Virus record (IMG/VR): IMGVR_UViG_3300025390_000009
Span: 1-58,381 of that record
Reading direction: 5' to 3' (one strand)
Source: a virus
Lineage: Duplodnaviria; Caudoviricetes
DNA: 58,381 nt
Both the position numbers and the translations under genes were made by a program. Numbering within the stretch: the first letter of the stretch is position 1; each line of letters starts with the position of its first letter. Under the pieces are notes generated by a model. The model saw only the letters and a program-made list of their open reading frames with translations. It searched no databases and was not told where the DNA came from. Positions 1-58,381 of this stretch are shown here, piece by piece.

Positions 1-127
1 GAGGAAATAGGCGACTTTACACACCGCATGGTTTTGTGTTGTCAGGTTCACCCAAGTTCGGCAGACATCAATGTTCTTGGACTTAAGTTTATTGTTGAGG
101 ACATACTAAGAAAGGCACAAGAGAAAT
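1..127 (+). repeat. 127-bp exact direct repeat of 56449-56575 (3' end of a cassette ORF, EEIGDF...ILRKAQEK)
   Basis: Base-by-base identity; the copies diverge at 128 (g) versus 56576 (a). Confidence 0.93.
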
Positions 128-353
128 GACATATATATTTGCACAACCTTATAAATGCCCAACTTGTAAAACAATTACAGAATGGAGTCCGCATATTGAG
201 CAAACAATACCAACAACATCTAAAGGAAAACCAATTTGCCCTGTTTGTTGGGATAAGTTTTTATCTACTTTAAATGCGGAAATAGAATGTACTGTTGATT
301 TTGGAAACGGAAGTAACTATGAAAATAGATATGGAAAGGCACAAGAGAAATGA
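126..353 (+). CDS. Cassette protein, putative Zn ribbon
   Basis: CPTC and CPVC motifs; starts and ends in junction repeats; ends KAQEK. Confidence 0.8.
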   Translation: MTYIFAQPYKCPTCKTITEWSPHIEQTIPTTSKGKPICPVCWDKFLSTLNAEIECTVDFGNGSNYENRYGKAQEK

Positions 354-625
354 AAAATGAACCAGTAGGACATTTTTACCCCGAAGGTGAAGGTGTAACA
401 ATCTACGACATTAAGTTTGCGTGGAAAGTTACAGGAACAACAGAGCCTATCCCCCTCTATACCCATCCAGCAAATGAATTAGCTGAAGATTTAGAAGGAG
501 CTAAGTTAGTAATTTTAAGACTACAAGCTGAAATAGAAGCGTTGAAAGCAGAAAAAATTAGGGCTTATGACAATGGATATGAAGATGGTAGAAAGCCTAA
601 TACAAATAAGGAACAAGAGAAATGA
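350..625 (+). CDS. Cassette protein, mosaic (EPV, IPLYTHP, ANELAE, LQAEIEALK blocks)
   Basis: ORF track; bounded by repeats. Confidence 0.8.
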   Translation: MKNEPVGHFYPEGEGVTIYDIKFAWKVTGTTEPIPLYTHPANELAEDLEGAKLVILRLQAEIEALKAEKIRAYDNGYEDGRKPNTNKEQEK

Positions 626-888
626 ACAATGAACCAATAGCGTGGATGTGTAAAGATGATGATGTTATTACAGATAAATTTAAGAAATCAGGTAAAGGTG
701 GTGATTGTTCTGATTACAACATTCCACTCTACACCCATCCAGCAAAGACACTAACAGATGAGGAAAAGATAAAGTTAATTGGGACTTTAAAGTGGGCAGA
801 AGATTTATTGCGTTCATCATGTAACGATGAGGCGGTAAATGATGTGCAAGATTGCCTAATGATACTAAGAAAGGCACAAGAGAAATGA
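622..888 (+). CDS. Cassette protein, mosaic (EPIAW, IPLYTHP, LTDEE, ILRKAQEK); paralogue of 56197-56577
   Basis: First ~125 nt are nearly identical to those from 56197. Confidence 0.85.
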   Translation: MNNEPIAWMCKDDDVITDKFKKSGKGGDCSDYNIPLYTHPAKTLTDEEKIKLIGTLKWAEDLLRSSCNDEAVNDVQDCLMILRKAQEK

Positions 889-1196
889 ACGTACAAAGGT
901 TAATAGAAACATACAACACCTATGAAGAACCACAAGACTGGGCAGAACAAGCTAAAGAGGCGTTGGGGCAATTACAAAATGCTTTAGAACAAGAAACCAC
1001 CATGCTACGCCAGCAACAAGCTGAAATTGAAGGGTGGAAAGAAAGAGTTTCAATTGCATATTGGCACGATACTTTTGTAGAAGTAAAAAAGCCTAACAGC
1101 GATTTAATTTATCGCTTTAGATTAGATGATGTTTGTAAGCATGGAGTAGATGATGGTGCTTGTAAAGAATGTTATGCGGAGGCACAAGAGAAATGA
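885..1196 (+). CDS. Cassette protein (MNVQRLIET...), paralogue of 55806-56012, with a Cys-containing C-terminus
   Basis: Start reassigned to the ATG inside the repeat at 885; contains the TMLRQQQAEIE block. Confidence 0.85.
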   Translation: MNVQRLIETYNTYEEPQDWAEQAKEALGQLQNALEQETTMLRQQQAEIEGWKERVSIAYWHDTFVEVKKPNSDLIYRFRLDDVCKHGVDDGACKECYAEAQEK

Positions 1197-1267
1197 TTAC
1201 TTTAGCGGTTTGGTTTATTTTATCTTTTTGTTTTGGGTACTTACTAAGAAAGGCGCAAGGGAAATGA
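1193..1267 (+). CDS. 24-aa hydrophobic cassette micropeptide MITLAVWFILSFCFGYLLRKAQGK
   Basis: Translated by hand; fills the gap between two repeats exactly and in frame. Confidence 0.7.
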   Translation: MITLAVWFILSFCFGYLLRKAQGK

Positions 1268-1422
1268 AATTAACTACTGAAGAAATACACAATATTTATT
1301 TACATCAAGGCGGTATAGCGGAAGGTTTATTAAGAGCAGGTTCTGATGCAGACTTTCCTGTAATGTTTGCAGAGGCAATCATAGAATTTTATGAAGGTAA
1401 AAGAAAGGCACAAGAGAAATGA
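1264..1422 (+). CDS. Cassette protein (MKLTTEEI...KRKAQEK)
   Basis: Start reassigned to the ATG in the repeat at 1264; LTTEEI variant block. Confidence 0.8.
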   Translation: MKLTTEEIHNIYLHQGGIAEGLLRAGSDADFPVMFAEAIIEFYEGKRKAQEK

Positions 1423-1508
1423 ACTTTATAAACTGGGTATTTGATGGCAGTTTTAAATGGTGGTTACTTGGTGCAGTTATTGTTTATATCATTGCTAGAT
1501 TTAGTTAA
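1419..1508 (+). CDS. 29-aa hydrophobic cassette micropeptide MNFINWVFDGSFKWWLLGAVIVYIIARFS
   Basis: Translated by hand from the repeat ATG; one TM-like stretch; stops just before the next repeat. Confidence 0.65.
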   Translation: MNFINWVFDGSFKWWLLGAVIVYIIARFS

Positions 1509-1524
1509 GAAAGGCACAAGAGAA

Positions 1525-1728
1525 ATGAGCCTAACTGAAATGCGTGAAGATTTATGCACCCAAAAACGAGTTAGTAGGTCAAGAGTTACCTACGATATTA
1601 ACTATGACCAAGAAGTTATTTACGTTCAAGAAGGTTGGAATGATGGTCAAACTACAGTTTGGGATAACGAAATGGATATTGTGTTAATAGATGCTATGAC
1701 CAAACAAAGAAAGGCACAAGAGAAATGA
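1525..1728 (+). CDS. Cassette protein (MSLTEMRED...QRKAQEK)
   Basis: Start reassigned to the repeat ATG at 1525. Confidence 0.8.
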   Translation: MSLTEMREDLCTQKRVSRSRVTYDINYDQEVIYVQEGWNDGQTTVWDNEMDIVLIDAMTKQRKAQEK

Positions 1729-2681
1729 GCCAATCAATCATTCCTACCCACACTCTTGACCGCAAGGTCATCAGGTGGGAGGATCATCTAAGAGACTTAA
1801 CTCCCGTAGAGAACCACAAAGGCATGTGGTTCAAGCGGGAGGACTACTTCAATACGCTCGGTTACGGTGGACCGAACGGGAGTAAGTTGCGCCAGTTAAT
1901 TTATTACATGACAAAGAACCGAAAAGGTAAGACGCACGTACTCACTGGTGCGTCAATTCAAAGTCCGCAACTTTCAATGTCCGCTATTGTGGGCGCGCAC
2001 CTTGGTTTACCTTCCCGCATGGTTGTTTATTCAAAACCTGATACCGTACTGCGGCATGACAACCCGCGTATTGCGGGCGGCTTCGGGACTCACTTTGAGT
2101 ATGCCGCCGCGCCGTATAACCCAGTGTTGCAGCGCATGGTTGGTGACTTGACCCGCCCTGACTCCCTAGTAGTCAACTATGGTATTACTGTTGACCATGA
2201 AAAGCATCCTGAGGAACTTTATGGCTTTCATGACGTCGGGGCTAATCAGACGAGGAACATTCCCGCTGAGGTCAAGACTTTGATTGTGCCCGCTGGCTCA
2301 TGCAATTCCCTCTGCAGTATACTACTCGGGCTTTCAAAGGATGCGCACAACATTGAAACTTTGTTTACCGTAGGTATTGGACCCAGTAAAGCCCAATGGA
2401 TTCGGGAACGCGCAGAGATTATGGGTATCAATCTTGATGCTTTACCGTTTAGATGGAAGCATTTTTCCTTACATGACACTGGCTACTCAAAGTATACTGA
2501 CAAATTTAACGGCGAGACCTATGACGGTATAGACTTTCATCCTACGTACGAGGCAAAAGTATGGCGCTATTTAAACCAGCAGGGAATGGATTTTGATGAC
2601 AGCGCACTCTTTTGGATTATAGGGTCGGAGCCGAAGTTAAGCGTAATTACACCTCATTTTACGCATCCTTTTTCTAACTAA
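1725..2681 (+). CDS. PLP-dependent enzyme (fold type II, ACC-deaminase-like); probable decarboxylase for hypermodified thymidine
   Basis: KREDY...GGPNGSKLRQ (PLP lysine), VPAGSCNS, GIDFHPTYEAK; co-occurs with 5-hmdU hypermodification genes. Confidence 0.8.
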   Translation: MSQSIIPTHTLDRKVIRWEDHLRDLTPVENHKGMWFKREDYFNTLGYGGPNGSKLRQLIYYMTKNRKGKTHVLTGASIQSPQLSMSAIVGAHLGLPSRMVVYSKPDTVLRHDNPRIAGGFGTHFEYAAAPYNPVLQRMVGDLTRPDSLVVNYGITVDHEKHPEELYGFHDVGANQTRNIPAEVKTLIVPAGSCNSLCSILLGLSKDAHNIETLFTVGIGPSKAQWIRERAEIMGINLDALPFRWKHFSLHDTGYSKYTDKFNGETYDGIDFHPTYEAKVWRYLNQQGMDFDDSALFWIIGSEPKLSVITPHFTHPFSN

Positions 2682-2788: not shown

Positions 2789-3388
2789 ATGACTTCACGT
2801 TTATTCCACATTGGTCCTGAAATTGAAAATCCAGTTGCTTATGGAGAGGCAATTTCTAGAAATATTATTACCAACGCTAAAAAGACTTTCAGCCGTAATT
2901 ATCCTGACTATGCTGAAATTGAAGCGTTCTTGTCTCAAGGTTATGAGATTGATGCTCACGAGCGTAAGATTTATAAAGACGGCTTTGTTGGTTCAGTTGC
3001 CTCTGCGTATGACACATACGGTAAATTAACCGAGAAGCAAGTGGCAGCAGTTCGTAAGTGCATCATCCAGCGCGATGCCCGCAAGGCAGAGTGGGCTGAT
3101 AAGCAGGCAGCTATCGACGCTGCTCGTGAGTATGTTGGCATCATCGGTGATAAAATTGTTTTAACTTTGGTCTTGAAGAAAGTAATCAACATTGATACTA
3201 ACTTCGGTCCAATCGGTATCTTTATTTTTGAAGACGCCAACAAAAACGTAATCATTTACAAAGGTGGTTGCGATGCAGTATGGAACCTTGCAGAGGGTGA
3301 AACAGTAACTCTCAAGGCGACAGTGAAGGAGCATGGTACTCGTAATGGTGTAAAACAAACTTTGATTCAAAGACCAAAAGCAGTTTAA
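2789..3388 (+). CDS. Early protein with probable C-terminal OB-fold
   Basis: Start placed after the AATAAAGGAAATA RBS; beta-rich C-terminus ending KATVKEH...GVKQTLIQRP. Confidence 0.65.
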   Translation: MTSRLFHIGPEIENPVAYGEAISRNIITNAKKTFSRNYPDYAEIEAFLSQGYEIDAHERKIYKDGFVGSVASAYDTYGKLTEKQVAAVRKCIIQRDARKAEWADKQAAIDAAREYVGIIGDKIVLTLVLKKVINIDTNFGPIGIFIFEDANKNVIIYKGGCDAVWNLAEGETVTLKATVKEHGTRNGVKQTLIQRPKAV

Positions 3389-3411
3389 TAACTCAAATAA
3401 AGGAAATACAA

Positions 3412-3726
3412 ATGAACCATATCTCTACCAAATTAGTTAATCAAGCACTCAGCCAATCTGCTCAGATGCAGGATCTTGACCGCCTTGGCTTATTGCAGGC
3501 TCAGGCAGCTGAACTCAATGAACAGATTGAGCAGCTCAAAGACGTATTCAAGAACGCTGGTGAGGGCACTTATGAGGGTGACCTTTATAAAGCTACGGTG
3601 ACCCTGTCTCAGCGTTCTACGTATGATTATAAACAGATGGTTGCTGACCTCGGTATTACTACTGAGCAATTGCAAAAGTATTACAAGTCCACTGCTTCAA
3701 TCGCCATTCGTGTAACCGCTAGATAA
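3412..3726 (+). CDS. Hypothetical phage protein (coiled-coil N-terminus)
   Basis: ORF with strong RBS. Confidence 0.75.
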   Translation: MNHISTKLVNQALSQSAQMQDLDRLGLLQAQAAELNEQIEQLKDVFKNAGEGTYEGDLYKATVTLSQRSTYDYKQMVADLGITTEQLQKYYKSTASIAIRVTAR

Positions 3727-3976: not shown

Positions 3977-4051
3977 TTGGTTTTACGCAGTCGTATTTAT
4001 CAGCATCCCGTCTTACGTTTTATTTTTGATAACTAAATAAAGGAAATAACA

Positions 4052-7826: not shown

Positions 7827-8026
7827 AATCAAATAAAAAGAATATCAGTCAACAATCATTAGAATCCTTAGTGATTGCCCTCATGCAATGTAAAGATGAA
7901 GACGGATTATTGCTTAACATTAGTCCCGCTACAGCTTTTCAAGATTGGCTCTTAAATGAATATCCTGAAACAATACGTAACATGTGGAAAAGACAACACG
8001 CATTTGAAGTGCCCGCAAAATATTGA
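7823..8026 (+). CDS. Hypothetical protein
   Basis: ORF track; ATGA overlap. Confidence 0.6.
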   Translation: MKSNKKNISQQSLESLVIALMQCKDEDGLLLNISPATAFQDWLLNEYPETIRNMWKRQHAFEVPAKY

Positions 8027-8040
8027 GCTATAATTTCAAC
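8025..8040 (+). promoter_or_regulatory. Conserved phage promoter motif GAGCTATAATTTCAAC
   Basis: Identical 16-mer at 12580 and 54729; contains TATAAT. Confidence 0.75.
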
Positions 8041-8064
8041 TCAATAACCGAATAAAGGAAACAC

Positions 8065-8658
8065 ATGAACGTAATTCTATCACTCCGCGGAACTAGCGGT
8101 TCTGGAAAAACTACTGTAGCCCGTAAGTTCTTGACGGATTACCCCTGCTCAGCAATAATAGACCCCAACGGTAAAAAGAAACATTGGGGGTATCATGTTG
8201 ATTTGTCAAGTCAAGGAATCTCTCAGCCGCTTTATGTGATTGGTAGTTATCAAAATACTTGCGGAGGTACAGATGGTATCAGTACTCAAGAGGAAATTGC
8301 AGAACGAGCCTTGGCTGCTCATCCTAGGGGTCATGTTCTGCTTGAAGGTTTGTTACTCTCAAAAGTGGGTCCAGGAGCAATCACAACACAGATGCTTAAA
8401 CCAACAGGTGCGTACGTCGCGGCTATCCTCGATACGCCCCTCGCAACTTGCCTACAGAGAGTGCAAGCGCGTAGAGATGCCCGTGGGGAAACAAAGCCGT
8501 TCAATCCAGCGAATACTGTAAGCGCACATAAATCTACTTATGACGCTTGCGTTAATTTGCATAATGCAGGTGGAGTAAAAATTATTACAATAGATCACAC
8601 CGATGCCTTTAATGACACTCTAGAAGTTATCAGAAAGGCAGAGAATGGCACTCTTTGA
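8065..8658 (+). CDS. P-loop kinase, probable kinase subunit of 5-hmdU DNA kinase
   Basis: Walker A GTSGSGKT, VLLEG and R..AR lid; overlaps the helical-domain gene. Confidence 0.75.
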   Translation: MNVILSLRGTSGSGKTTVARKFLTDYPCSAIIDPNGKKKHWGYHVDLSSQGISQPLYVIGSYQNTCGGTDGISTQEEIAERALAAHPRGHVLLEGLLLSKVGPGAITTQMLKPTGAYVAAILDTPLATCLQRVQARRDARGETKPFNPANTVSAHKSTYDACVNLHNAGGVKIITIDHTDAFNDTLEVIRKAENGTL

Positions 8659-9508
8659 TGAATTAGTTGAGTTCGTTAATGAGCGAGAGCAAGTGCGCCT
8701 GAATAAGGATTCAGGATTCCTTCAGCCATATACGCTTGACCCAATACTTGCTAAGTATCGGTTCTGCAATGTGCGCCGTAGGGATGATAGGGTAAGTAAG
8801 TGGTTACTAACTTATTACTATAAGAATCCTCAAGGTGACGTATGGTTCCGCGCCCTTTTAGCGCGTTTGATCAATTGGCCACCGACTCTGCTTTACTTAA
8901 TGGATAACCTTGTTATACCGCACCGCGCTGAAGATTTCAATGCTTATCTTTTTATAGAGGCGATGAAGGAACTAGAAGCTAAAAAAGAGAAAGTATACAG
9001 CTCGGCTTATATTGTTTACCCTACAATGGTAAAAGGTAATACAAAGTCAGTGAACCTTTGTGAGTATATTATAAAACCTACAATACACATGGCTAGTCAA
9101 ATGCGGGGTGCTGTTGCTTCAAATTCAATTAAGTATACTACTGAAACACTGGCTACTGCGTTTGGAATTCAGAGTTTCATTGCGGGGCAAGTGAGTGCAG
9201 ACTTAACGTATTTACGCAATCAGTTAGACAGTGCTATTGATCTCTACTCATGGGCACCCATGGGTCCAGGAAGTCAACGCGGTCTAAATAGGTTATATCA
9301 ACGCACTATTAATAAAAAGTTTACTGAGGAAAGATTCAATCAGGAATTAACAGAGATCCGTTCAATCTTGATTGATTCAAATAATAAATTAAAAGATTTA
9401 ACCCTGCATGATTGTCAAAACATCATGTGTGAGTTCGATAAGTATCAAAGAGTAAAAACAGGAGAGGGTAAACCTCGTCAGAATTACAAACCAACAACAG
9501 AATTTTAA
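8645..9508 (+). CDS. 5-hmdU DNA kinase helical domain (aGPT-Pplase1 family)
   Basis: ERE...DPILAKYRFCNVRRRDDR, GPGSQRGL and CEFDKY motifs. Confidence 0.85.
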   Translation: MALFDELVEFVNEREQVRLNKDSGFLQPYTLDPILAKYRFCNVRRRDDRVSKWLLTYYYKNPQGDVWFRALLARLINWPPTLLYLMDNLVIPHRAEDFNAYLFIEAMKELEAKKEKVYSSAYIVYPTMVKGNTKSVNLCEYIIKPTIHMASQMRGAVASNSIKYTTETLATAFGIQSFIAGQVSADLTYLRNQLDSAIDLYSWAPMGPGSQRGLNRLYQRTINKKFTEERFNQELTEIRSILIDSNNKLKDLTLHDCQNIMCEFDKYQRVKTGEGKPRQNYKPTTEF

Positions 9509-9521
9509 TAAAGGAAATAAC

Positions 9522-12622: not shown

Positions 12623-12940
12623 ATGCAAGATGAATTAAATCTAGAGCCAGAAGTAGTTTGGGTAGTGGACAACACCCAGCGTAAAACTATCAAGGACGCA
12701 GCACGCTTCGGAGAAATTGAACATGTCTTTACTGACGTTCAGTACGATGACCCCGTTGCTCATGCCCGCGAGGTTTTAAAAGATTTCCGAGAAGGTGATT
12801 ATTTATGCATGATTGGAGATCCAAAGTTGTCAGCAGTGTGCGTCGGAGTATTGGCGCAAAACAATCCTGGGAATGAGATTAAGTTGTTGCAGTTTGACAG
12901 CCGAACCTTTCAGTATTTCCCAGTATATTTAAACTTTTAA
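12623..12940 (+). CDS. Conserved hypothetical protein of the replication module
   Basis: Start placed after the promoter and purine-rich RBS. Confidence 0.7.
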   Translation: MQDELNLEPEVVWVVDNTQRKTIKDAARFGEIEHVFTDVQYDDPVAHAREVLKDFREGDYLCMIGDPKLSAVCVGVLAQNNPGNEIKLLQFDSRTFQYFPVYLNF

Positions 12941-12954
12941 TAAAGGAAATAAAC

Positions 12955-13692
12955 ATGAGCTTTATGGATTCCCTCGTGAAGGGAAAGCAGGAACTACCTC
13001 CCCGAATTTGTATTTACGGAAATCATGGTATCGGTAAGAGCACAATCGCGGCTCAATTCCCCGCACCAATTTTTGTTAATACTGAGGACGGTATCGATTC
13101 ATTGGATGTAACTTCATTCCCTCGTGCCTCTGAAATTGGCGACGTAGTAGGAGCTATCAAGACGTTGCTCAAAGAGGATCACAAGTTTAAAACACTAGTG
13201 ATTGACTCTGTTGATTGGCTTGTTGAGCCGTTAATCTCTAAGAATGTTGAGTCATCGTATGACGCAAAAGACTTAGGATACGGTAAGAATCAAGTTTACG
13301 TAGCTGAAGAGTTCCGTGAGATTCTTCAGGGTCTTGATGCACTACGCCGCAAAAAGGGTATGAATATCGTCTTACTCGCGCATGCCTCAGTGGTTCGTTA
13401 TGAGAACCCTTTGACTGAGCCGTATGACCGCTTTGTACCTAAGTTGCCTAACCGCTGCAATGCATTGTTGCAGGAGTGGTGCGACGTAGTAGCGTATGCT
13501 GGGTTCAAAGTGATTGTCAAAAAAGCAGACGTCGGCTTCAATAACACTGTAAACCGTGGAATCACTACTGGAGAGAGATTGTTGCATGTGACTGAAAGTC
13601 CAGCGTACATTGCAAAAAACCGTTATGCCTGTCCTGATTCTTTTGAGATGACCATTGAGGAAATCTCTAAAAATATACCTGTAGTATCTTAA
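12955..13692 (+). CDS. AAA_24 / Sak4-like ATPase recombinase
   Basis: YGNHGIGKST, TLVIDSVD, LLAH and AKNR motifs; adjacent to an SSB gene. Confidence 0.85.
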   Translation: MSFMDSLVKGKQELPPRICIYGNHGIGKSTIAAQFPAPIFVNTEDGIDSLDVTSFPRASEIGDVVGAIKTLLKEDHKFKTLVIDSVDWLVEPLISKNVESSYDAKDLGYGKNQVYVAEEFREILQGLDALRRKKGMNIVLLAHASVVRYENPLTEPYDRFVPKLPNRCNALLQEWCDVVAYAGFKVIVKKADVGFNNTVNRGITTGERLLHVTESPAYIAKNRYACPDSFEMTIEEISKNIPVVS

Positions 13693-13713
13693 TAACCTAA
13701 AGGAGTAATAAAT

Positions 13714-14235
13714 ATGTCTAGTAAATTTGGATTTGATTTAAATGAGTATGAATCAGAAGAACGTAGCTACGAGCCATTACCAAAAGGTGAGTATGAACTC
13801 AAATGCACAGAAGCTGAAGAGAAAACAACTCAAAAGGGCGGAACTATGATTGCTGCAACTTTTGAAGTAGTCTCAGGTAAGTATGCTAACCGTAAAATTT
13901 GGAACAACTACAACATTCACAACGATTCAGAAAAAGCGCAACGCATCGGTCGTGAGCAGGTTTCAGCATGGGCACGTGCCTGCGGTAAGCCAAACGCTAC
14001 CTCTGTTGATGAATTGCTTGAGCGTAGTTTTACGGCGGTTCTTGATATTGAAAAAGGCACAAATGGCTACTCTGACCGTAACCGTATTGTAGGCTACGTA
14101 GGTAAGGATTCAGCCCCAGCAGTAAAATCTAAAGCTAAAGAGCCATCATTATTAGACTTAGAAGATGACAATCTTTCAACAGCTAAGGTAAAACCAGAAG
14201 CAAAAGAAGGTAAAAAGAAAAATCCTTGGGATTAA
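13714..14235 (+). CDS. DUF669-family ssDNA-binding protein
   Basis: EPLPKGEY...GKYANRKIW; C-terminal PWD. Confidence 0.8.
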   Translation: MSSKFGFDLNEYESEERSYEPLPKGEYELKCTEAEEKTTQKGGTMIAATFEVVSGKYANRKIWNNYNIHNDSEKAQRIGREQVSAWARACGKPNATSVDELLERSFTAVLDIEKGTNGYSDRNRIVGYVGKDSAPAVKSKAKEPSLLDLEDDNLSTAKVKPEAKEGKKKNPWD

Positions 14236-14326
14236 TGTTTTACGGGGGTACACAGCTGAAGGTCGTAGTACTTAAATAAGTATCCTAAATACTGCCCCGC
14301 CTCTAATAACGCAATAAAGGAAATAC

Positions 14327-15187
14327 ATGGCAACTAAAAAACCAGCACCAATCTTGATTCCTGCAGCTGAGGATGAAATGATTGGGCAAATTTACGCAGC
14401 TATAAAGCAGCGTCAATCGCGCCCAATGAGGTTGTCTAGGCTCGGTGCGTCAGGCATCGGAGAGGAGTGCCTCAGGAAGATTTGGATGGATTGGCGTGGC
14501 TACGGCTCAGTTGAATTTGATGGTCGCATGTTACGTCTATTTGAGACTGGCCACTTGCAGGAAGACCGAATCGTTTCTGACCTCAAAGCTGCGGGGTACA
14601 CAGTTTACGAAAAGGACTCAAACGGAGAGCAATTTACGTTTACGGACAAAACTGGGCATTTTGTAGTCAAACTAGACGGAGTTATAAAGGGTATACCTTC
14701 AGCTGAAAACACACCACACGTACTTGAAGCAAAGACGCATAACAAGAAGTCTTTTGATGAGTTGGAAAAGAAAGGCGTTGTCATTTCTAAGCCGATGCAT
14801 TATTATCAAGTTCAGGCGGGAATGCTATTCAGTGGCATTGAACGAGGACTATATTTTGCCCTCGGGAAGGATAACGAGGCTATTTACGTTCGGCGTATCA
14901 AGCCAGACACGCACACTCAAAATGACATACTCAAACGAATTGACATATTAGTTAATGCAGAAATACGTCCAGCGCGTATTGGTGAGAGTGATGAGGCTTA
15001 CCCCTGCCGATGGTGCGACTTTAAAGAGGTGTGCTTTGACAAGAAGCCGCCCCTCAAAAATTGTCGTACTTGCGAGTTCTCAAGACCAGTTGAAGAAGGT
15101 AAATGGTGGTGTGATCATAACGATTTTAATTTACCTATGGAACTGCAACTTGAAGGCTGTGAATCTTACGTTCAGAAAGGTAAATGA
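14327..15187 (+). CDS. Cas4-like PD-(D/E)xK exonuclease
   Basis: CLRKIW, GH..E, LDG, LEAK, QVQ and CRWC...C (Fe-S-like), plus CRTC. Confidence 0.85.
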   Translation: MATKKPAPILIPAAEDEMIGQIYAAIKQRQSRPMRLSRLGASGIGEECLRKIWMDWRGYGSVEFDGRMLRLFETGHLQEDRIVSDLKAAGYTVYEKDSNGEQFTFTDKTGHFVVKLDGVIKGIPSAENTPHVLEAKTHNKKSFDELEKKGVVISKPMHYYQVQAGMLFSGIERGLYFALGKDNEAIYVRRIKPDTHTQNDILKRIDILVNAEIRPARIGESDEAYPCRWCDFKEVCFDKKPPLKNCRTCEFSRPVEEGKWWCDHNDFNLPMELQLEGCESYVQKGK

Positions 15188-54708: not shown

Positions 54709-54744
54709 TTGCCTCCCTGAAGCAATCCGAGCTATAATTTCAAC
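54709..54744 (+). promoter_or_regulatory. Rightward promoter driving DUF932 gene and cassette array
   Basis: TTGCCT-18 nt-TATAAT, within GAGCTATAATTTCAAC. Confidence 0.75.
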
Positions 54745-54781
54745 TGCTTCACCTTATAAACGCTTAAATAAAGGAAATACT

Positions 54782-55528
54782 ATGACATTTGAATTGCCCG
54801 CTGCCGCCGTCTCTCCTTTGCAATCCGAGGGTCTCTCGCAGAAATACCAGATCATTCACACCACCGACGTAGTGGACATCATGACCGAGCATGACTTCAT
54901 CGTTACGCAGGTACATTCGATGAAGCCTAGAGTCCGTGATCCCCGTGTTGTAGAACATTTTATTAGATTGCGGCACAAAGACTTTTCTCACGAAATTAAC
55001 GGCACAATCCCTGAAGTGTTAGTAGTCAATTCTAACGATGGTTCAACTTCATTACGCATGGACGCTGCGCTGTTCCGCTTGATTTGCGGGAATGGTTTAA
55101 TCGTCAAGTCAGCTGATATCTATAGGTCTCGGCTGCGCCATGTGGACGTGACTGAGCAGTCAGTTATTGAGGAGTCAAAGAAGGTTATCAACGCCGCAAT
55201 AGAGGCAGCAAAACGTATTGAAAAGTTTCAAAAGAAAATACTAATGGGTTATGCAGTATATGAGTTTGCATGCGAGGCTAGTGAATTAGCCCTCAAAATT
55301 GTAGGTTCAAATATTAAACCAGGAGACCTATTAGTTTCTAGGCGAGATGAGGATTCAGGCGGTGCACTTTGGAACGTCCTGAACCGAGTTCAAGAGAACC
55401 TAGTCAAAGGCGGAATCACTTATCGCACTCGCAAGGGTCGGCAAATGACTTCACGAGGCATCACTGGAGCCACGCCGTTAATTCAAATGAACGAACGCTT
55501 ATGGTCATTAGCGGAGGACTATCTATGA
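54782..55528 (+). CDS. DUF932/DUF945-family protein
   Basis: H..RLR, PE...VNSNDGS, FRLICGNGL and LWNVLNRVQEN..KGG. Confidence 0.85.
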   Translation: MTFELPAAAVSPLQSEGLSQKYQIIHTTDVVDIMTEHDFIVTQVHSMKPRVRDPRVVEHFIRLRHKDFSHEINGTIPEVLVVNSNDGSTSLRMDAALFRLICGNGLIVKSADIYRSRLRHVDVTEQSVIEESKKVINAAIEAAKRIEKFQKKILMGYAVYEFACEASELALKIVGSNIKPGDLLVSRRDEDSGGALWNVLNRVQENLVKGGITYRTRKGRQMTSRGITGATPLIQMNERLWSLAEDYL

Positions 55529-55809
55529 ACGCAAATGAACTAGCTGATGAGTTGGATAGCATTTCTTATGATTGCTCTCTTGAAGAATGGAGGGCATCGC
55601 CTATAGGTAATGCCGCCACTATGCTACGCCAGCAACAAGCTGAAATAGAGGCGTTGAAAGAACCAAAGATACCCTTACTTGAGCAAGAAATTAAATTCAT
55701 ACTTGGTAATGGTCAATGCTGGCAAGGTGAAGATTGTAGTATGCCGAACCTAATGTACATTATTCGTGCAGTAGAGGTGGCACATGGAATAGGAGTTAAA
55801 CAAAAATGA
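55525..55809 (+). CDS. First cassette protein (MNANELADEL...TMLRQQQAEIEALK...RAVEVAHGIG)
   Basis: Start reassigned to the ATGA overlap with the DUF932 stop. Confidence 0.8.
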   Translation: MNANELADELDSISYDCSLEEWRASPIGNAATMLRQQQAEIEALKEPKIPLLEQEIKFILGNGQCWQGEDCSMPNLMYIIRAVEVAHGIGVKQK

Positions 55810-56012
55810 ACATACAAAGATTAATAGAAACACACAACACCCATGAAGAACCACATGACTGGTCGGAACAAGCTAAAGAGGCGTTGGGGCAATTACAAAA
55901 TGCTTTAGAACAAGAAACCACCATGCTACGTCAGCAACAAGCTGAAATAGAGGACTTAAAATACCAATTAAAAATTACAAGAATGGTTCTTAATAGGGAG
56001 CAAGAAAAATGA
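55806..56012 (+). CDS. Cassette protein, paralogue of 885-1196
   Basis: Near-identical first 49 aa; ends REQEK. Confidence 0.85.
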   Translation: MNIQRLIETHNTHEEPHDWSEQAKEALGQLQNALEQETTMLRQQQAEIEDLKYQLKITRMVLNREQEK

Positions 56013-56200
56013 TTACAGGCTTTATGAATCCTGTTGTTGCTGCGGCTCGCCTGCAAGCAACCCAAGCAAGTGCCTATAGGCTTTTTCAAAAGTTAGATGG
56101 AACAACAGTGTTGCAAGGTGCTTTTCTTTGGACTGAAGGCTCTAATGGTGGGCATGAATGGAAAGATATTCCAACAATTATTGAGGCACAAGAGAAATGA
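56009..56200 (+). CDS. Cassette protein
   Basis: Bounded by repeats; ends EAQEK. Confidence 0.8.
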   Translation: MITGFMNPVVAAARLQATQASAYRLFQKLDGTTVLQGAFLWTEGSNGGHEWKDIPTIIEAQEK

Positions 56201-56577
56201 ACAATGAACCAGTAGCGTGGATGTGTAAAGATGATGATGTTATTACAGATAAATTTAAGAAATCAGGTAAAGGTGGTGATTGTTCTGATTACAACATTCC
56301 ACTCTACACCCATCCAGCAAAAGAACTACACCTATCACTTCAAAAAAGTAAAGAAACAGGTGAACTATTAGCCGTTACTTATACAGATGACGAGCATAGG
56401 ATTGTGGAAGTGTTATGGAAAAAACCACCAGAAAAGGCACTAACAGATGAGGAAATAGGCGACTTTACACACCGCATGGTTTTGTGTTGTCAGGTTCACC
56501 CAAGTTCGGCAGACATCAATGTTCTTGGACTTAAGTTTATTGTTGAGGACATACTAAGAAAGGCACAAGAGAAATAA
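56197..56577 (+). CDS. Cassette protein, mosaic (EPVAW, IPLYTHP, insert, LTDEEI, ILRKAQEK)
   Basis: Shares its 5' part with 622-888 and its 3' part with 1-127. Confidence 0.85.
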   Translation: MNNEPVAWMCKDDDVITDKFKKSGKGGDCSDYNIPLYTHPAKELHLSLQKSKETGELLAVTYTDDEHRIVEVLWKKPPEKALTDEEIGDFTHRMVLCCQVHPSSADINVLGLKFIVEDILRKAQEK

Positions 56578-56729
56578 TGGCTACGATAATTCCAGCAAAA
56601 GATGTCGGCAGAGTATTGCTTGATGCTATCAATGAAGCATTGGCAGAAATACCTGATGACAAAACAAAACAGGCGGTGTTAGAAGCATTTAGTAAGCAGA
56701 TGTTTTATGGAAAGGCACAAGAGAAATGA
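56577..56729 (+). CDS. 50-aa cassette protein (MATIIPAK...YGKAQEK)
   Basis: Translated by hand; TAATG overlap; ends in the repeat. Confidence 0.8.
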   Translation: MATIIPAKDVGRVLLDAINEALAEIPDDKTKQAVLEAFSKQMFYGKAQEK

Positions 56730-56896
56730 ACATAGTTTCTAAATGCCGATGTGGGGCTTTACTTGATGTAACTGCTAGCGACATCCCTGCAAGATTTTCA
56801 TTTATAGAGTGGTTGAAACTACATGAAGAATGCCCACAAAAAATGTTTTCATCACATATTGCTTTTAAATATTTAATAAGAAAGGCACAAGAATGA
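56726..56896 (+). CDS. 56-aa cassette protein (CRCG...HEEC; ends IRKAQE)
   Basis: Translated by hand; repeat-to-repeat in frame. Confidence 0.8.
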   Translation: MNIVSKCRCGALLDVTASDIPARFSFIEWLKLHEECPQKMFSSHIAFKYLIRKAQE

Positions 56897-57597
56897 ACGC
56901 AAATGATACAAACAAACTAATTTCAAACATTCAATCCTTTGCTGACAGACTTAGGAATGACGATAGGTCATCCATCATGTTTGAAGCAGACTGGGATACT
57001 TTGATGGAATCCAAAACCATGCTACGCCAACAACAAGTTGAAATAGAATTTCTTAAAAAAGAAATACTCGCAAAGCATGAAGATTGGAAACATGAAGGAC
57101 AGCAAGCCGCTAATGCAAAAGCTGAAAACGAAGCGTTGAAACTAGCTAAAAAAGTAATTCTCAGATACGCAGAACAAGATATTGCAAAATATAGGGCTGA
57201 AGTAGAGAAGTTGAAACAGCAAGTTGGTATATGGGAAAAAGAAGCCATGAACGCAAGAATTAAAATGTCTCTTTATCAAGCTGAAATAGAAGCGTTGAAA
57301 AAACAATTAGCCTTATGGAGATTGTCTAAATCATCTGAGGAGATTGAGCAATCAAACCCTACATCTGTGGGGGGTTTAGATGAACCAGTAGCGTGGATGC
57401 GTAAAGAAGATAAAGATACATTCTTTAGTGCTATTGACCACTCATTAAATAGTAAATGGATTCCGCTTTTTATTCATCCAGCAGACTTAACAGATGAGGA
57501 AATAGCAGAGGTTTATGAGAAATGCGAATGGGCTAGTGGATATGTTTACTGGAAAGAATTTGCTAGAGCAATACTAAGAAAGGCACAAGAGAAATGA
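56893..57597 (+). CDS. Large mosaic cassette protein with coiled coil
   Basis: Contains all shared blocks; ends ILRKAQEK. Confidence 0.85.
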   Translation: MNANDTNKLISNIQSFADRLRNDDRSSIMFEADWDTLMESKTMLRQQQVEIEFLKKEILAKHEDWKHEGQQAANAKAENEALKLAKKVILRYAEQDIAKYRAEVEKLKQQVGIWEKEAMNARIKMSLYQAEIEALKKQLALWRLSKSSEEIEQSNPTSVGGLDEPVAWMRKEDKDTFFSAIDHSLNSKWIPLFIHPADLTDEEIAEVYEKCEWASGYVYWKEFARAILRKAQEK

Positions 57598-57698
57598 TTA
57601 TTTTATTAGCAATAGCTCTATCCATATTCCTAGCTGGATTGTTTCATTACGGAGCAATCATCCATCAAAAAGATATGGAAAAAAGGAGAAGGAAATGA
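57594..57698 (+). CDS. 34-aa hydrophobic cassette micropeptide (MIILLAIALSIFLAGLF...KRRRK)
   Basis: Translated by hand; ATGA overlaps at both ends. Confidence 0.7.
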   Translation: MIILLAIALSIFLAGLFHYGAIIHQKDMEKRRRK

Positions 57699-58276
57699 AT
57701 GCAAATGAACTAGCTGATGAATTGGATAAATTAGAAATAGTTTGTAGACGCCCTTCCGAATTGATAGGAAACGAAACACATGAACAAGCGGCTTTAAGAT
57801 GTAATCCAAATTTAACAATAAAAAAAGAAGCAGCCACCATGCTACGCCAGCAACAAGCTGAAATAGAAGAATTAAAAGCTAAAATGTCGCTCAATAGCTA
57901 CGATGATGTTAAAAATGTCGCTAATCAGCTATTACAAGCTGAAATAGCAAAATTGAAAAAGCAATTAGCTTTATGGAGATTGTCTAAATCATCTAAAAAG
58001 ATTGAACAAGTACCAACAAACCCTACACTTATGGGGGGTTTAGCTGAACCAGTAGCGTGGATAGATAAAAACACAGGCAAGCCAAGAATGGAAGGTTTTA
58101 TTAAAACTGACTACGATATTCCACTCTACACCCATCCCAGCAAAGACTTAACAGATGAGGAAATAGAGGCGTTTGCTTACGCTTTTGAATTGTGGCAGAT
58201 GAACAATCCTGACAAAGTATTAGAAGGCATTATTGATTTTGCTAAAGCAATACTAAAAAAGGCACAAGAGAAATGA
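57695..58276 (+). CDS. Large mosaic cassette protein
   Basis: Contains all shared blocks; ends ILKKAQEK. Confidence 0.85.
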   Translation: MNANELADELDKLEIVCRRPSELIGNETHEQAALRCNPNLTIKKEAATMLRQQQAEIEELKAKMSLNSYDDVKNVANQLLQAEIAKLKKQLALWRLSKSSKKIEQVPTNPTLMGGLAEPVAWIDKNTGKPRMEGFIKTDYDIPLYTHPSKDLTDEEIEAFAYAFELWQMNNPDKVLEGIIDFAKAILKKAQEK

Positions 58277-58381
58277 ATATTCAAATACAAATAGTCAAAG
58301 AACATAAAGATGGGTCAGCAGACGCATTAGTGCATTTTGACGCTGAAGGTCTAGGAGTATTAGTTGAGGCTGGAATTTTAG
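58273..58381 (+). CDS. Partial cassette ORF (MNIQIQIVKEHKDGSADA...), runs off the window
   Basis: Starts at the repeat ATG; open to the window end. Confidence 0.75.
   Translation, partial: MNIQIQIVKEHKDGSADALVHFDAEGLGVLVEAGIL

Follow-up and report, generated by a model that had tools for sequence, protein, structure and literature searches.

Why should a single short sequence stand at nearly every joint in a long chain of small phage genes, and what does it do there? The question is raised by a gene array that occupies the two ends of IMG/VR virus record IMGVR_UViG_3300025390_000009 and whose joints carry a repeated 19-nucleotide (nt) motif, AAAGGCACAAGAGAAATGA. The window analysed here is the whole of this record, 58,381 bases long, which is entered as 'linear' and rated 100% complete by CheckV; all 24 sequencing runs listed as holding it (kept as contigs) are freshwater, lake or freshwater-sediment metagenomes. 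The motif is probably a portable translation-restart signal that doubles as a short-homology recombination linker in a hypervariable early-gene region of an uncultured freshwater phage. This reading is built on the anatomy of the array, the conservation of the motif at the nucleotide level, its sharing across contigs, breakpoints that are exact to the cassette, and a series of relatives with from none to at least 19 cassettes at one site.

A scan of the whole record finds 14 copies of the 19-mer at three or fewer mismatches (nine exact, one with one mismatch and four with two), all on the plus strand, where 0.01 would be expected by chance and none of 100 shuffles reached 14. The copies are confined to the record ends, nine at 111-1728 and five at 56182-58276, and an indel variant and a degenerate variant bring the total to 16 (Table 1). 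This is the number, nine at the left and seven at the right, given in a preliminary description made from the sequence alone; an independent repeat search returned 13 copies (family D1). Between a DUF932 gene and a conserved gene of 318 amino acids (aa) lie 19 chained open reading frames (ORFs) of 24-234 aa, the same size range on re-reading as had first been reported. Seventeen of the 19 junctions are 4-nt ATGA overlaps, three of which (55525, 55806 and 57695) lack the motif. One is a 1-nt TAATG overlap (56577), and one is a 16-nt gap, where the upstream ORF has its stop at 1508 and is followed by an intact but untranslated repeat, exactly as had been noted.

The array ORFs had been called otherwise unrelated, which is only partly right. 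Several are mosaic paralogues that share blocks (repeat families D2, D4-D8 and D10-D12) and a longer tail, ..ILRKAQEK. Near-identical short stretches of DNA encode MNANELADEL, MLRQQQAEIE, EPVAW and IPLYTHPA in array proteins at 55525-58276 and 350-1060, and there are longer paralogous stretches, 878-1030 matching 55799-55951 at 93% and 609-753 matching 56184-56328 at 97%. In two of the related loci described below (L151 and L152), homology to the window stops inside an AEIEALK block, near 55658, which suggests that crossovers may occur within genes too. Positions 1-127 are 100% identical to 56449-56575 (family D7), after which the two copies run into different cassettes. The record thus ends inside the array, and the number of its cassettes can be given only as a lower bound of 19. 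Probably the assembly forks at this 127-nt duplicate and the genome closes through the array.

The search of viral metagenomes that had been suggested finds the exact 19-mer in at least 120 IMG/VR contigs of 4-80 kb, with about 107 different record-number prefixes; 120 loci (given L numbers here) were used, with at most 15 kb fetched for each. They hold 237 copies of the 16-mer core at two or fewer mismatches, always on one strand within a locus, with none on the minor strand. Neighbouring copies have a median spacing of 212 nt, and 84 of the 117 intervals leave a remainder of 2 on division by three, the value predicted if each holds one ATGA-chained ORF. Within the DNA fetched, the window has a non-array protein (of at least 100 aa) in common with only 33 of the 120 loci, and no protein is common to all of the motif-bearing loci. 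Relatives of the 126-aa and 193-aa ORFs are held by 13 loci.

In other phages the motif supplies the ATG of a DNA polymerase A, a YqaJ exonuclease, an amino-acid:DNA transferase, a radical-SAM enzyme, a methyltransferase and a Toprim protein. Their arrays often adjoin recombination-exonuclease genes and lie near antirestriction-type genes, as with DUF932 here: a YqaJ exonuclease is next to the arrays of L023, L028, L073 and L078, and MW202753 (L163) has a gene annotated 'exonuclease' with an 'antirestriction protein' gene upstream. MW202753, which is uncultured, is the only INPHARED record with both the long form of the motif tail and the motif in a search with a 48-nt query at E values up to 10; its motif-associated genes are annotated 'hypothetical protein', and the other 10 matches are weak, partial and in unrelated genes. 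In the INPHARED phage records no real relative of either half of the array was found, and no cultured phage with the motif. The exact 19-mer is also present in 20 contigs of metagenome-assembled genomes, the labels of which range from Burkholderiales and Polynucleobacter to archaea; this scattered taxonomy was rejected as evidence of host and is read as mis-binned phage DNA, with freshwater Burkholderiales no more than a weak lead. In four freshwater runs, the summed contig depth of blocks shared among array genes (721-810 and 991-1080) is 10 to more than 100 times that of unique cassettes, so that these blocks must be present in many more genomes than that of this phage.

The motif has a core of 16-19 nt, (A)AGGCACAAGAGAAATGA, which in roughly 40% of copies is lengthened to about 40 nt; the long tail, ..FARAILRKAQEK, is carried by 100 of 236 copies (about 42%), and 108 of 236 have unrelated sequence upstream of the core. 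The tail holds at once the last codons of one gene, usually (K)AQEK, the sequence AAAGG, the stop and the overlapping ATG of the next gene. AAAGG is a Shine-Dalgarno (SD)-like tract 10 nt before the ATG, with CACAAGAG as the spacer; in other genes of the phage an AAAGGA precedes the ATG by 7 nt. It fits the phage's own ribosome-site consensus, AATAAAGGAAATA, which occurs eight times against 0.26 expected. The ATG of the motif opens an ORF in all 227 copies, none shorter than 20 codons and with a 5th percentile of 31 codons. The upstream frame is less strictly kept: in 19 of 215 copies a stop closes the KAQEK frame no more than 15 codons upstream, and there the upstream ORF often ends at the TAA of TTAAGAAAGG. 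Conservation ends sharply after the ATGA and fades gradually upstream, where it is bimodal, and the best conserved part is the 3' half, GAGAAATGA. Predicted folding is weaker over the motif (-6.0 kcal/mol) than over cassette interiors (-10.3 kcal/mol).

Conservation at the level of nucleic acid, proposed in the preliminary description, is borne out. Sites encoding KAQEK-stop in any codons have the canonical sequence in 194 of 207 cases, with none on the opposite strand; when one locus-selecting copy per locus is left out, 74 of 87 remain canonical, against 1.65% expected from cassette codon usage. Synonymous positions do not vary freely, and the motif is kept where it is untranslated. A sister junction encoding K-A-S-E-K, GGCAAGTGAGAAATGA and relatives, is found in L152 (6203-6265 and 6446-6568) and also in L119, and the commonest form of it has five copies among the 120 loci listed.

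The idea that the repeat is a crossover point, also put forward from the sequence alone, gains support from comparison of the loci. Their 251 motif-led ORFs fall into 215 nucleotide clusters. Cassettes common to several loci are 75-100% identical inside and unlike outside, with their edges at the motif; identity above about 90% begins at the core and stops at the next ATGA. Cluster 1 occurs in four neighbour contexts and clusters 6, 9 and 11 in two each. Among 45 cross-locus pairs of the same cassette with measurable flanks, both flanks are unlike in 18, the upstream flank alone in 16 and the downstream flank alone in five, so that at least one flank differs in 39. Cassettes of the window itself recur elsewhere with unlike flanks (the 24-aa ORF in L105, the 52-aa ORF in L018, the 29-aa ORF in L043 and the 126-aa ORF in L125). 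In alignments of at least 150 bp and 85% identity, 77 of 351 distinct interior endpoints lie in motif windows, which make up 0.87% of the sequence, a rate of 0.31 per motif versus 0.026 per other plus strand ORF start (at most about 12-fold). Contigs of four freshwater runs fragment at the repeats, and the motif-to-motif joints listed for them (125>332, 129>863 and 889>1400) have sides of 22-27 nt, below the reliability limit of 30 nt, and are counted neither way.

Nor do close relatives keep the same cassette content and order, which had been named beforehand as the outcome that would speak against exchange. Relatives found through the DUF932 gene (L149-L156) have DUF932 proteins of 80-99% amino-acid identity, and in them both anchor genes, DUF932 on the left and the 318-aa gene on the right, have 74-93% nucleotide identity. 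What lies between the anchors varies from nothing upwards. In L155 (DUF932 80% identical) there are no cassettes, and DUF932 joins the homologue of the 318-aa gene directly by ATGA. L153 (99%) has one cassette; L150 (99%) has five, including window cassettes in a different order; L152 (98%) has about nine, with precisely the 29-aa cassette missing from between two motif copies; and in the window there are at least 19. The first cassette after DUF932 starts without the motif, the last motif leads into the 318-aa gene, and the single cassette of L153 has a motif-like tail, so that the unit gained and lost is an ORF plus its 3' tail. None of the three outcomes named beforehand as refuting the crossover idea (fixed cassette content and order, breakpoints away from the repeat, freely varying synonymous sites) came about.

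These features would fit together as follows. The array lies directly behind a likely early promoter and the DUF932 gene, and each cassette comprises an ORF and a 3' tail with its last codons, the SD-like tract, the stop and the next ATG. An inserted cassette would bring with it the restart signal for the following gene, so that its insertion should not be polar. Because almost all junctions, across many phages, have this one sequence in the same orientation, the sequence would also serve as a short homology. Homologous or annealing-based recombination at the tail would delete, duplicate, insert and exchange whole cassettes, both within genomes and between co-infecting ones, and to judge from the breakpoints every product would be in frame and coupled. 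Candidates for the activity are host RecA or the phage's Sak4-like annealase, single-stranded-DNA-binding protein (SSB) and exonuclease. Sak4 is described as having a single-strand annealing activity that is stimulated by its cognate SSB (PMC5928155), and annealing proteins of this sort are described as recombining diverged substrates (PMC5499656). We infer from sequence comparison that recombination at the motif is the cause of the rearrangements, which enzymes may act in it, and that the gene after each motif owes its translation to the motif; translational coupling across the joints is likewise read from the sequence.

Several points weigh against this reading. A length of 16 to 19 nt is little for recombination of the RecA type. 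Exchange at the motif is deduced from patterns seen on comparing metagenome contigs, not from observed events, and chimeric assembly is possible for single contigs. The three motif-less ATGA junctions indicate that the motif is not needed for chaining, and in six of the 45 cassette pairs both neighbours are alike. The 12-fold contrast in endpoints is an upper bound because the control ORF starts include spurious ORFs. In looser alignments, ends pile up at the ATGA (2037 of 5720) much more than starts gather within -40 to 0 of the ATG (431 of 5837, 135 of these at -20 to -16); much of the pile-up, and part of the asymmetry, is due to the homologous long tail of a protein family. The conservation figures are biased upward, since loci were picked for the exact 19-mer, a bias that leaving out the selecting copies corrects in part. 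Lastly, variant motifs are not clustered within loci (one pair versus 0.31 expected, p=0.27), so that there is no sign of homogenisation within genomes by concerted evolution.

A more far-reaching form of the same idea can be offered tentatively. With somewhat less than even likelihood, the motif may be a community-wide 'standard plug', that is, a selected, integrase-free system by which many freshwater phages trade early accessory genes through short-homology recombination. With one dual-coding stop/SD/start sequence as the plug, insertions would be non-polar and in frame, and the traded genes may be concerned with host takeover or anti-defence. If true, this would provide a natural working example of how the linker model explains modular evolution in phages, acting on translation and not on transcription.

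The strongest alternative is that the motif is an expression element and nothing more, which selection maintains because the ribosome, or some factor of host or phage, binds to it. It would then be a class-specific translation-initiation or operator sequence of immediate-early genes, comparable to a RegA-type operator or to the start-associated sequences (SASs) of mycobacteriophages, and breakpoints would fall there because mosaic joints fall at gene boundaries. Much of the anatomy suits this. The ATG always opens a downstream ORF and the upstream frame is dispensable, AAAGG matches the ribosome-site consensus, the region is poorly structured, the 3' half is the best conserved part, and core replication genes of other phages are preceded by the motif as well. 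The genome contains a second start-associated motif before conserved syntenic genes (repeat family D9), and SASs are themselves described as asymmetric, one-oriented and start-linked, with no known function (PMC3203893). What such an element leaves unexplained is the freezing of 10 nt beyond those that pair as an SD sequence, across many phage contigs of which 33 in 120 share a non-array protein with the window. The excess of breakpoints per motif over other ORF starts is unexplained too, as is the variation from none to at least 19 cassettes among near-identical backbones, and no candidate binding factor was identified. We therefore regard an expression role by itself as unlikely, although it is compatible with the linker reading, which includes a role in initiation.

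A second alternative, that KAQEK (or ILRKAQEK) is a functional C-terminal peptide of tandemly duplicated paralogues whose DNA identity reflects recent duplication, is largely refuted and has very little chance of being right. The longer conserved tail, the EPVAW, PLYTHP and MLRQQQAEIE blocks of the clearly mosaic window paralogues, and the 13 loci with relatives of the 126-aa and 193-aa ORFs speak for it. A peptide tag does not, however, account for frozen synonymous positions, for the copies untranslated in the KAQEK frame (the one at 1510-1528 among them), or for unrelated upstream sequence in nearly half of the copies. Among the products of the flanking ORFs are micropeptides, a CxxC protein and enzymes that belong to unrelated families, and identity cuts off at the motif edge with no decay.

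It is equally improbable that the motif is the target of a dedicated recombinase or nuclease of phage or host, of an integron/attC-like or homing type. Exact breakpoints and a single motif orientation are in keeping with such a target, and many window ORFs are of no known function. Pfam and PHROGs give nothing above threshold for seven array ORFs (five of them in the right-hand part), and the ESM Atlas gives viral hypothetical clusters for array ORFs, plus leads below 0.9 to Ead/Ea22-like and phiTE_015 families. The lack of an integrase had been pointed out at the outset, and the searches agree: the whole record has no match to PF00589, the family of IntI (14 of 14 control genomes matched), and none to PF00239 (serine recombinases). 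No attC-like hairpin is seen at the motif, since none of the five inverted-repeat pairs in the array touches a copy and motif windows fold more weakly than cassette interiors, and the loci have no protein in common within the DNA fetched. That the differing neighbours are chimeric joins made by metagenome assemblers at the repeat is hardly credible. In its favour, many contigs terminate within an array or beside one (L149, L151, L154 and L156), the window forks at its 127-nt repeat, and Logan contigs of four freshwater runs (X1, X4, X13 and X15) break up at shared blocks. Against it, reads and the usual final k-mers are much longer than a motif of 19-40 nt, so that reads span each junction, and X1 and X4 contigs match window junctions without differences, although the source sample may be among these runs. 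Different records also show the same arrangements (L036/L110, L021/L086 and L042/L097), and the forms with no cassette and one cassette (L155 and L153) have their own diverged flanks.

The surroundings of the array suit an early region. All plus strand genes lie in the stretch from 54782 across the record ends to about 17.8 kb, so that the array is the first part of one long rightward gene block. The best sigma-70-like promoter candidate of the record lies upstream of DUF932 and the array; inside the array there are weak 9-of-12 sites, fewer than in shuffles and none coinciding with the motif in a consensus scan, and no plus strand terminator-like site. The TATAAT of this candidate is part of a 32-nt repeat (54729-54760) that recurs with 81% identity at 8025-8056, ahead of the P-loop gene that starts at 8065, where the promoter that precedes DUF932 may thus be repeated. 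Further along the block, genes for a Sak4-like protein, an SSB and a Cas4-domain exonuclease form a candidate recombination module (12955-15187) that may act at the motif. The consensus AATAAAGGAAATA amounts to a second start-associated motif, made up of a TAA stop, AAGGA and a spacer before the ATG and present on the plus strand alone. It precedes conserved early and middle genes, including those for DUF932, the Sak4-like protein, the exonuclease and a thymidylate-synthase-like enzyme, and two of its copies extend to 31 nt with 97% identity (2762-2792 and 3385-3415).

The record also encodes a primase-helicase, a DNA polymerase A, a terminase, a portal and tail proteins. No tRNA gene was found in the record and no Rfam family reached its gathering score in the whole window. 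The 318-aa gene has no Pfam family, and its PHROGs match, phrog_3650, is of no known function. The notion that a phage RNA polymerase promoter is involved was dropped when none of the 10 largest minus strand ORFs matched an RNA polymerase family in PHROGs; a 936-aa minus strand ORF has weak PHROGs matches only (E of about 1e-6 over a 34-residue stretch), to two families without known function.

Table 1. Positions of the array, its junction motifs and other features in the window
Feature	Position	Strand	Remarks
Best sigma-70-like promoter candidate	54709-54738	+	TTGCCT-18-TATAAT, 10/12; consensus match only
DUF932 gene, conserved left anchor	54782-55528	+	Pfam PF06067, E=5.5e-20; stop overlaps ATG of first cassette (ATGA, without motif)
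Right-hand array part	55525-58381	+	10 chained ORFs
ORF	55525-55809	+	94 aa
ORF	55806-56012	+	68 aa
ORF	56009-56200	+	63 aa
ORF	56197-56577	+	126 aa
ORF	56577-56729	+	50 aa
ORF	56726-56896	+	56 aa
ORF	56893-57597	+	234 aa
ORF	57594-57698	+	34 aa
ORF	57695-58276	+	193 aa
ORF	58273-58381	+	runs off record end
Left-hand array part	1-1728	+	9 chained ORFs
ORF	..1-129	+	tail only
ORF	126-353	+	75 aa, CxxC..CxxC
ORF	350-625	+	91 aa
ORF	622-888	+	88 aa
ORF	885-1196	+	103 aa
ORF	1193-1267	+	24 aa
ORF	1264-1422	+	52 aa
ORF	1419-1508	+	29 aa
ORF	1525-1728	+	67 aa
Degenerate junction	55994-56012	+	5 mismatches; tail REQEK-stop, ATGA overlap
Junction motif	56182-56200	+	2 mismatches at 5' end
Junction motif	56559-56577	+	TAA stop; next ATG begins 56577 (TAATG)
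Junction motif	56711-56729	+	exact
Junction motif, 3 nt shorter (indel variant)	56881-56896	+	tail RKAQE-stop, ATGA overlap
Junction motif	57579-57597	+	exact, with long conserved tail EFARAILRKAQEK
Junction motif	58258-58276	+	exact
Junction motif	111-129	+	exact
Junction motif	335-353	+	exact
Junction motif	607-625	+	2 mismatches; tail KEQEK
Junction motif	870-888	+	exact
Junction motif	1178-1196	+	2 mismatches at 5' end; tail EAQEK
Junction motif	1249-1267	+	2 mismatches; tail KAQGK
Junction motif	1404-1422	+	exact
Junction motif	1510-1528	+	exact, not translated; upstream ORF ends at TAA 1506-1508
Junction motif	1710-1728	+	exact; gives ATG of 318-aa gene
318-aa gene, conserved right anchor	1725-2681	+	ATG supplied by motif 1710-1728
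AATAAAGGAAATA, 8 copies	2773-2785, 3396-3408, 4036-4048, 8051-8063, 9507-9519, 12939-12951, 14313-14325, 54767-54779	+	
Sak4-like ssDNA-annealing protein	12955-13692	+	PHROGs phrog_124, E=4.8e-45
SSB	13714-14235	+	PHROGs phrog_6015/378
Cas4-domain exonuclease	14327-15187	+	PHROGs phrog_1990, E=1.1e-88

Several known systems resemble this arrangement in part. An ATGA stop/start overlap with a ribosome-binding tract in the end of the upstream gene is the ordinary form of translational coupling in bacterial and phage operons, and the array junctions share with it the 4-nt overlap and the SD-like tract upstream (17 of 19 here). Ordinary coupled junctions, however, vary from gene to gene, whereas the array reuses one of them, at nucleotide identity, for unrelated gene pairs in many genomes. 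The term 'integron-like' that was first applied to the array holds for its architecture, a one-oriented row of mostly small accessory cassettes, their number varying among relatives, which would have no promoters of their own and be expressed from one candidate promoter upstream. It does not hold for the defining parts of an integron, which are absent; the joints of the array are coding and translationally chained, and exchange presumably relies on homology as opposed to site-specific recombination.

The SASs and extended SASs (ESASs) of Cluster K mycobacteriophages (Pope et al. 2011, PMC3203893) are described as asymmetric and one-oriented, placed at the start codons of varied non-structural genes, with an SD core and conserved bases unable to pair with rRNA, and they sometimes hold the upstream stop codon. 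In all of this they resemble the array motif. They differ in standing 3-7 bp before the start and in being dispersed over the right arm rather than chained in an array, and cassette shuffling at SASs is not reported in the relevant parts of that paper. The 13-bp SAS consensus has no match at two or fewer mismatches in the window, and the likeness is confined to function and position.

The linker, or lambdoid boundary, sequences of modular theory, reportedly proposed by Susskind and Botstein in 1978 and by Clark et al. in 2001, are short conserved junction sequences where general recombination joins unrelated genes. The array agrees with them in having the same short sequence at the junctions of unrelated modules in different phages, with coincident breakpoints. 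It differs in that one exact sequence marks most of its junctions, is dual-coding and recurs in many phages. Boundary sequences are described as missing from most mosaic joints, and the shuffling of phage accessory genes is for the most part attributed to rare illegitimate recombination, with conserved linkers usually absent (PMC3029335). The array offers a concrete, testable example of linker-mediated gene exchange. It suggests a design rule, that a gene which brings along the restart signal for its successor can enter an operon at any point without polar effects, and it explains why assemblies of these phages break in this region. It also flags a large pool of early phage genes without known function, where genes for host takeover and anti-defence are to be expected.

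The closest known system is that of the promoter-early stem-loop (PeSL) cassettes in the hyperplastic regions of T4-type phages (Arbiol et al. 2010, PMC2839356; Comeau et al. 2014, PMC4122927). There, as here, copies of a brief, conserved signal for expression separate early genes that are small and for the most part ORFans, and where close relatives differ by an insertion, a deletion or a replacement, the repeats mark its limits. In both cases homologous recombination between repeats is proposed, every product being expressible; excised mini-circles carrying one chimeric repeat have been shown for PeSLs (PMC2839356, PMC4122927). PeSLs, as described in these papers, are intergenic and about 100 bp long, with a sigma-70 promoter and a stem-loop terminator that make each gene its own transcription unit. 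The array repeat, in contrast, is 16-40 nt long, lies inside coding sequence at a stop/start overlap, and is found in at least 120 environmental contigs as opposed to one phage pair. It has no sigma-70 promoter and no stem-loop and is not intergenic, lying within the upstream ORF and overlapping the next start; with neither promoter nor hairpin, it must act at the level of translation in one operon. Among the open-access papers searched, no description was found of a coding stop/start junction reused as a phage shuffling point. Short recombination linkers are an old idea; what would be new here is the reuse of a dual-coding stop/start joint as the linker.

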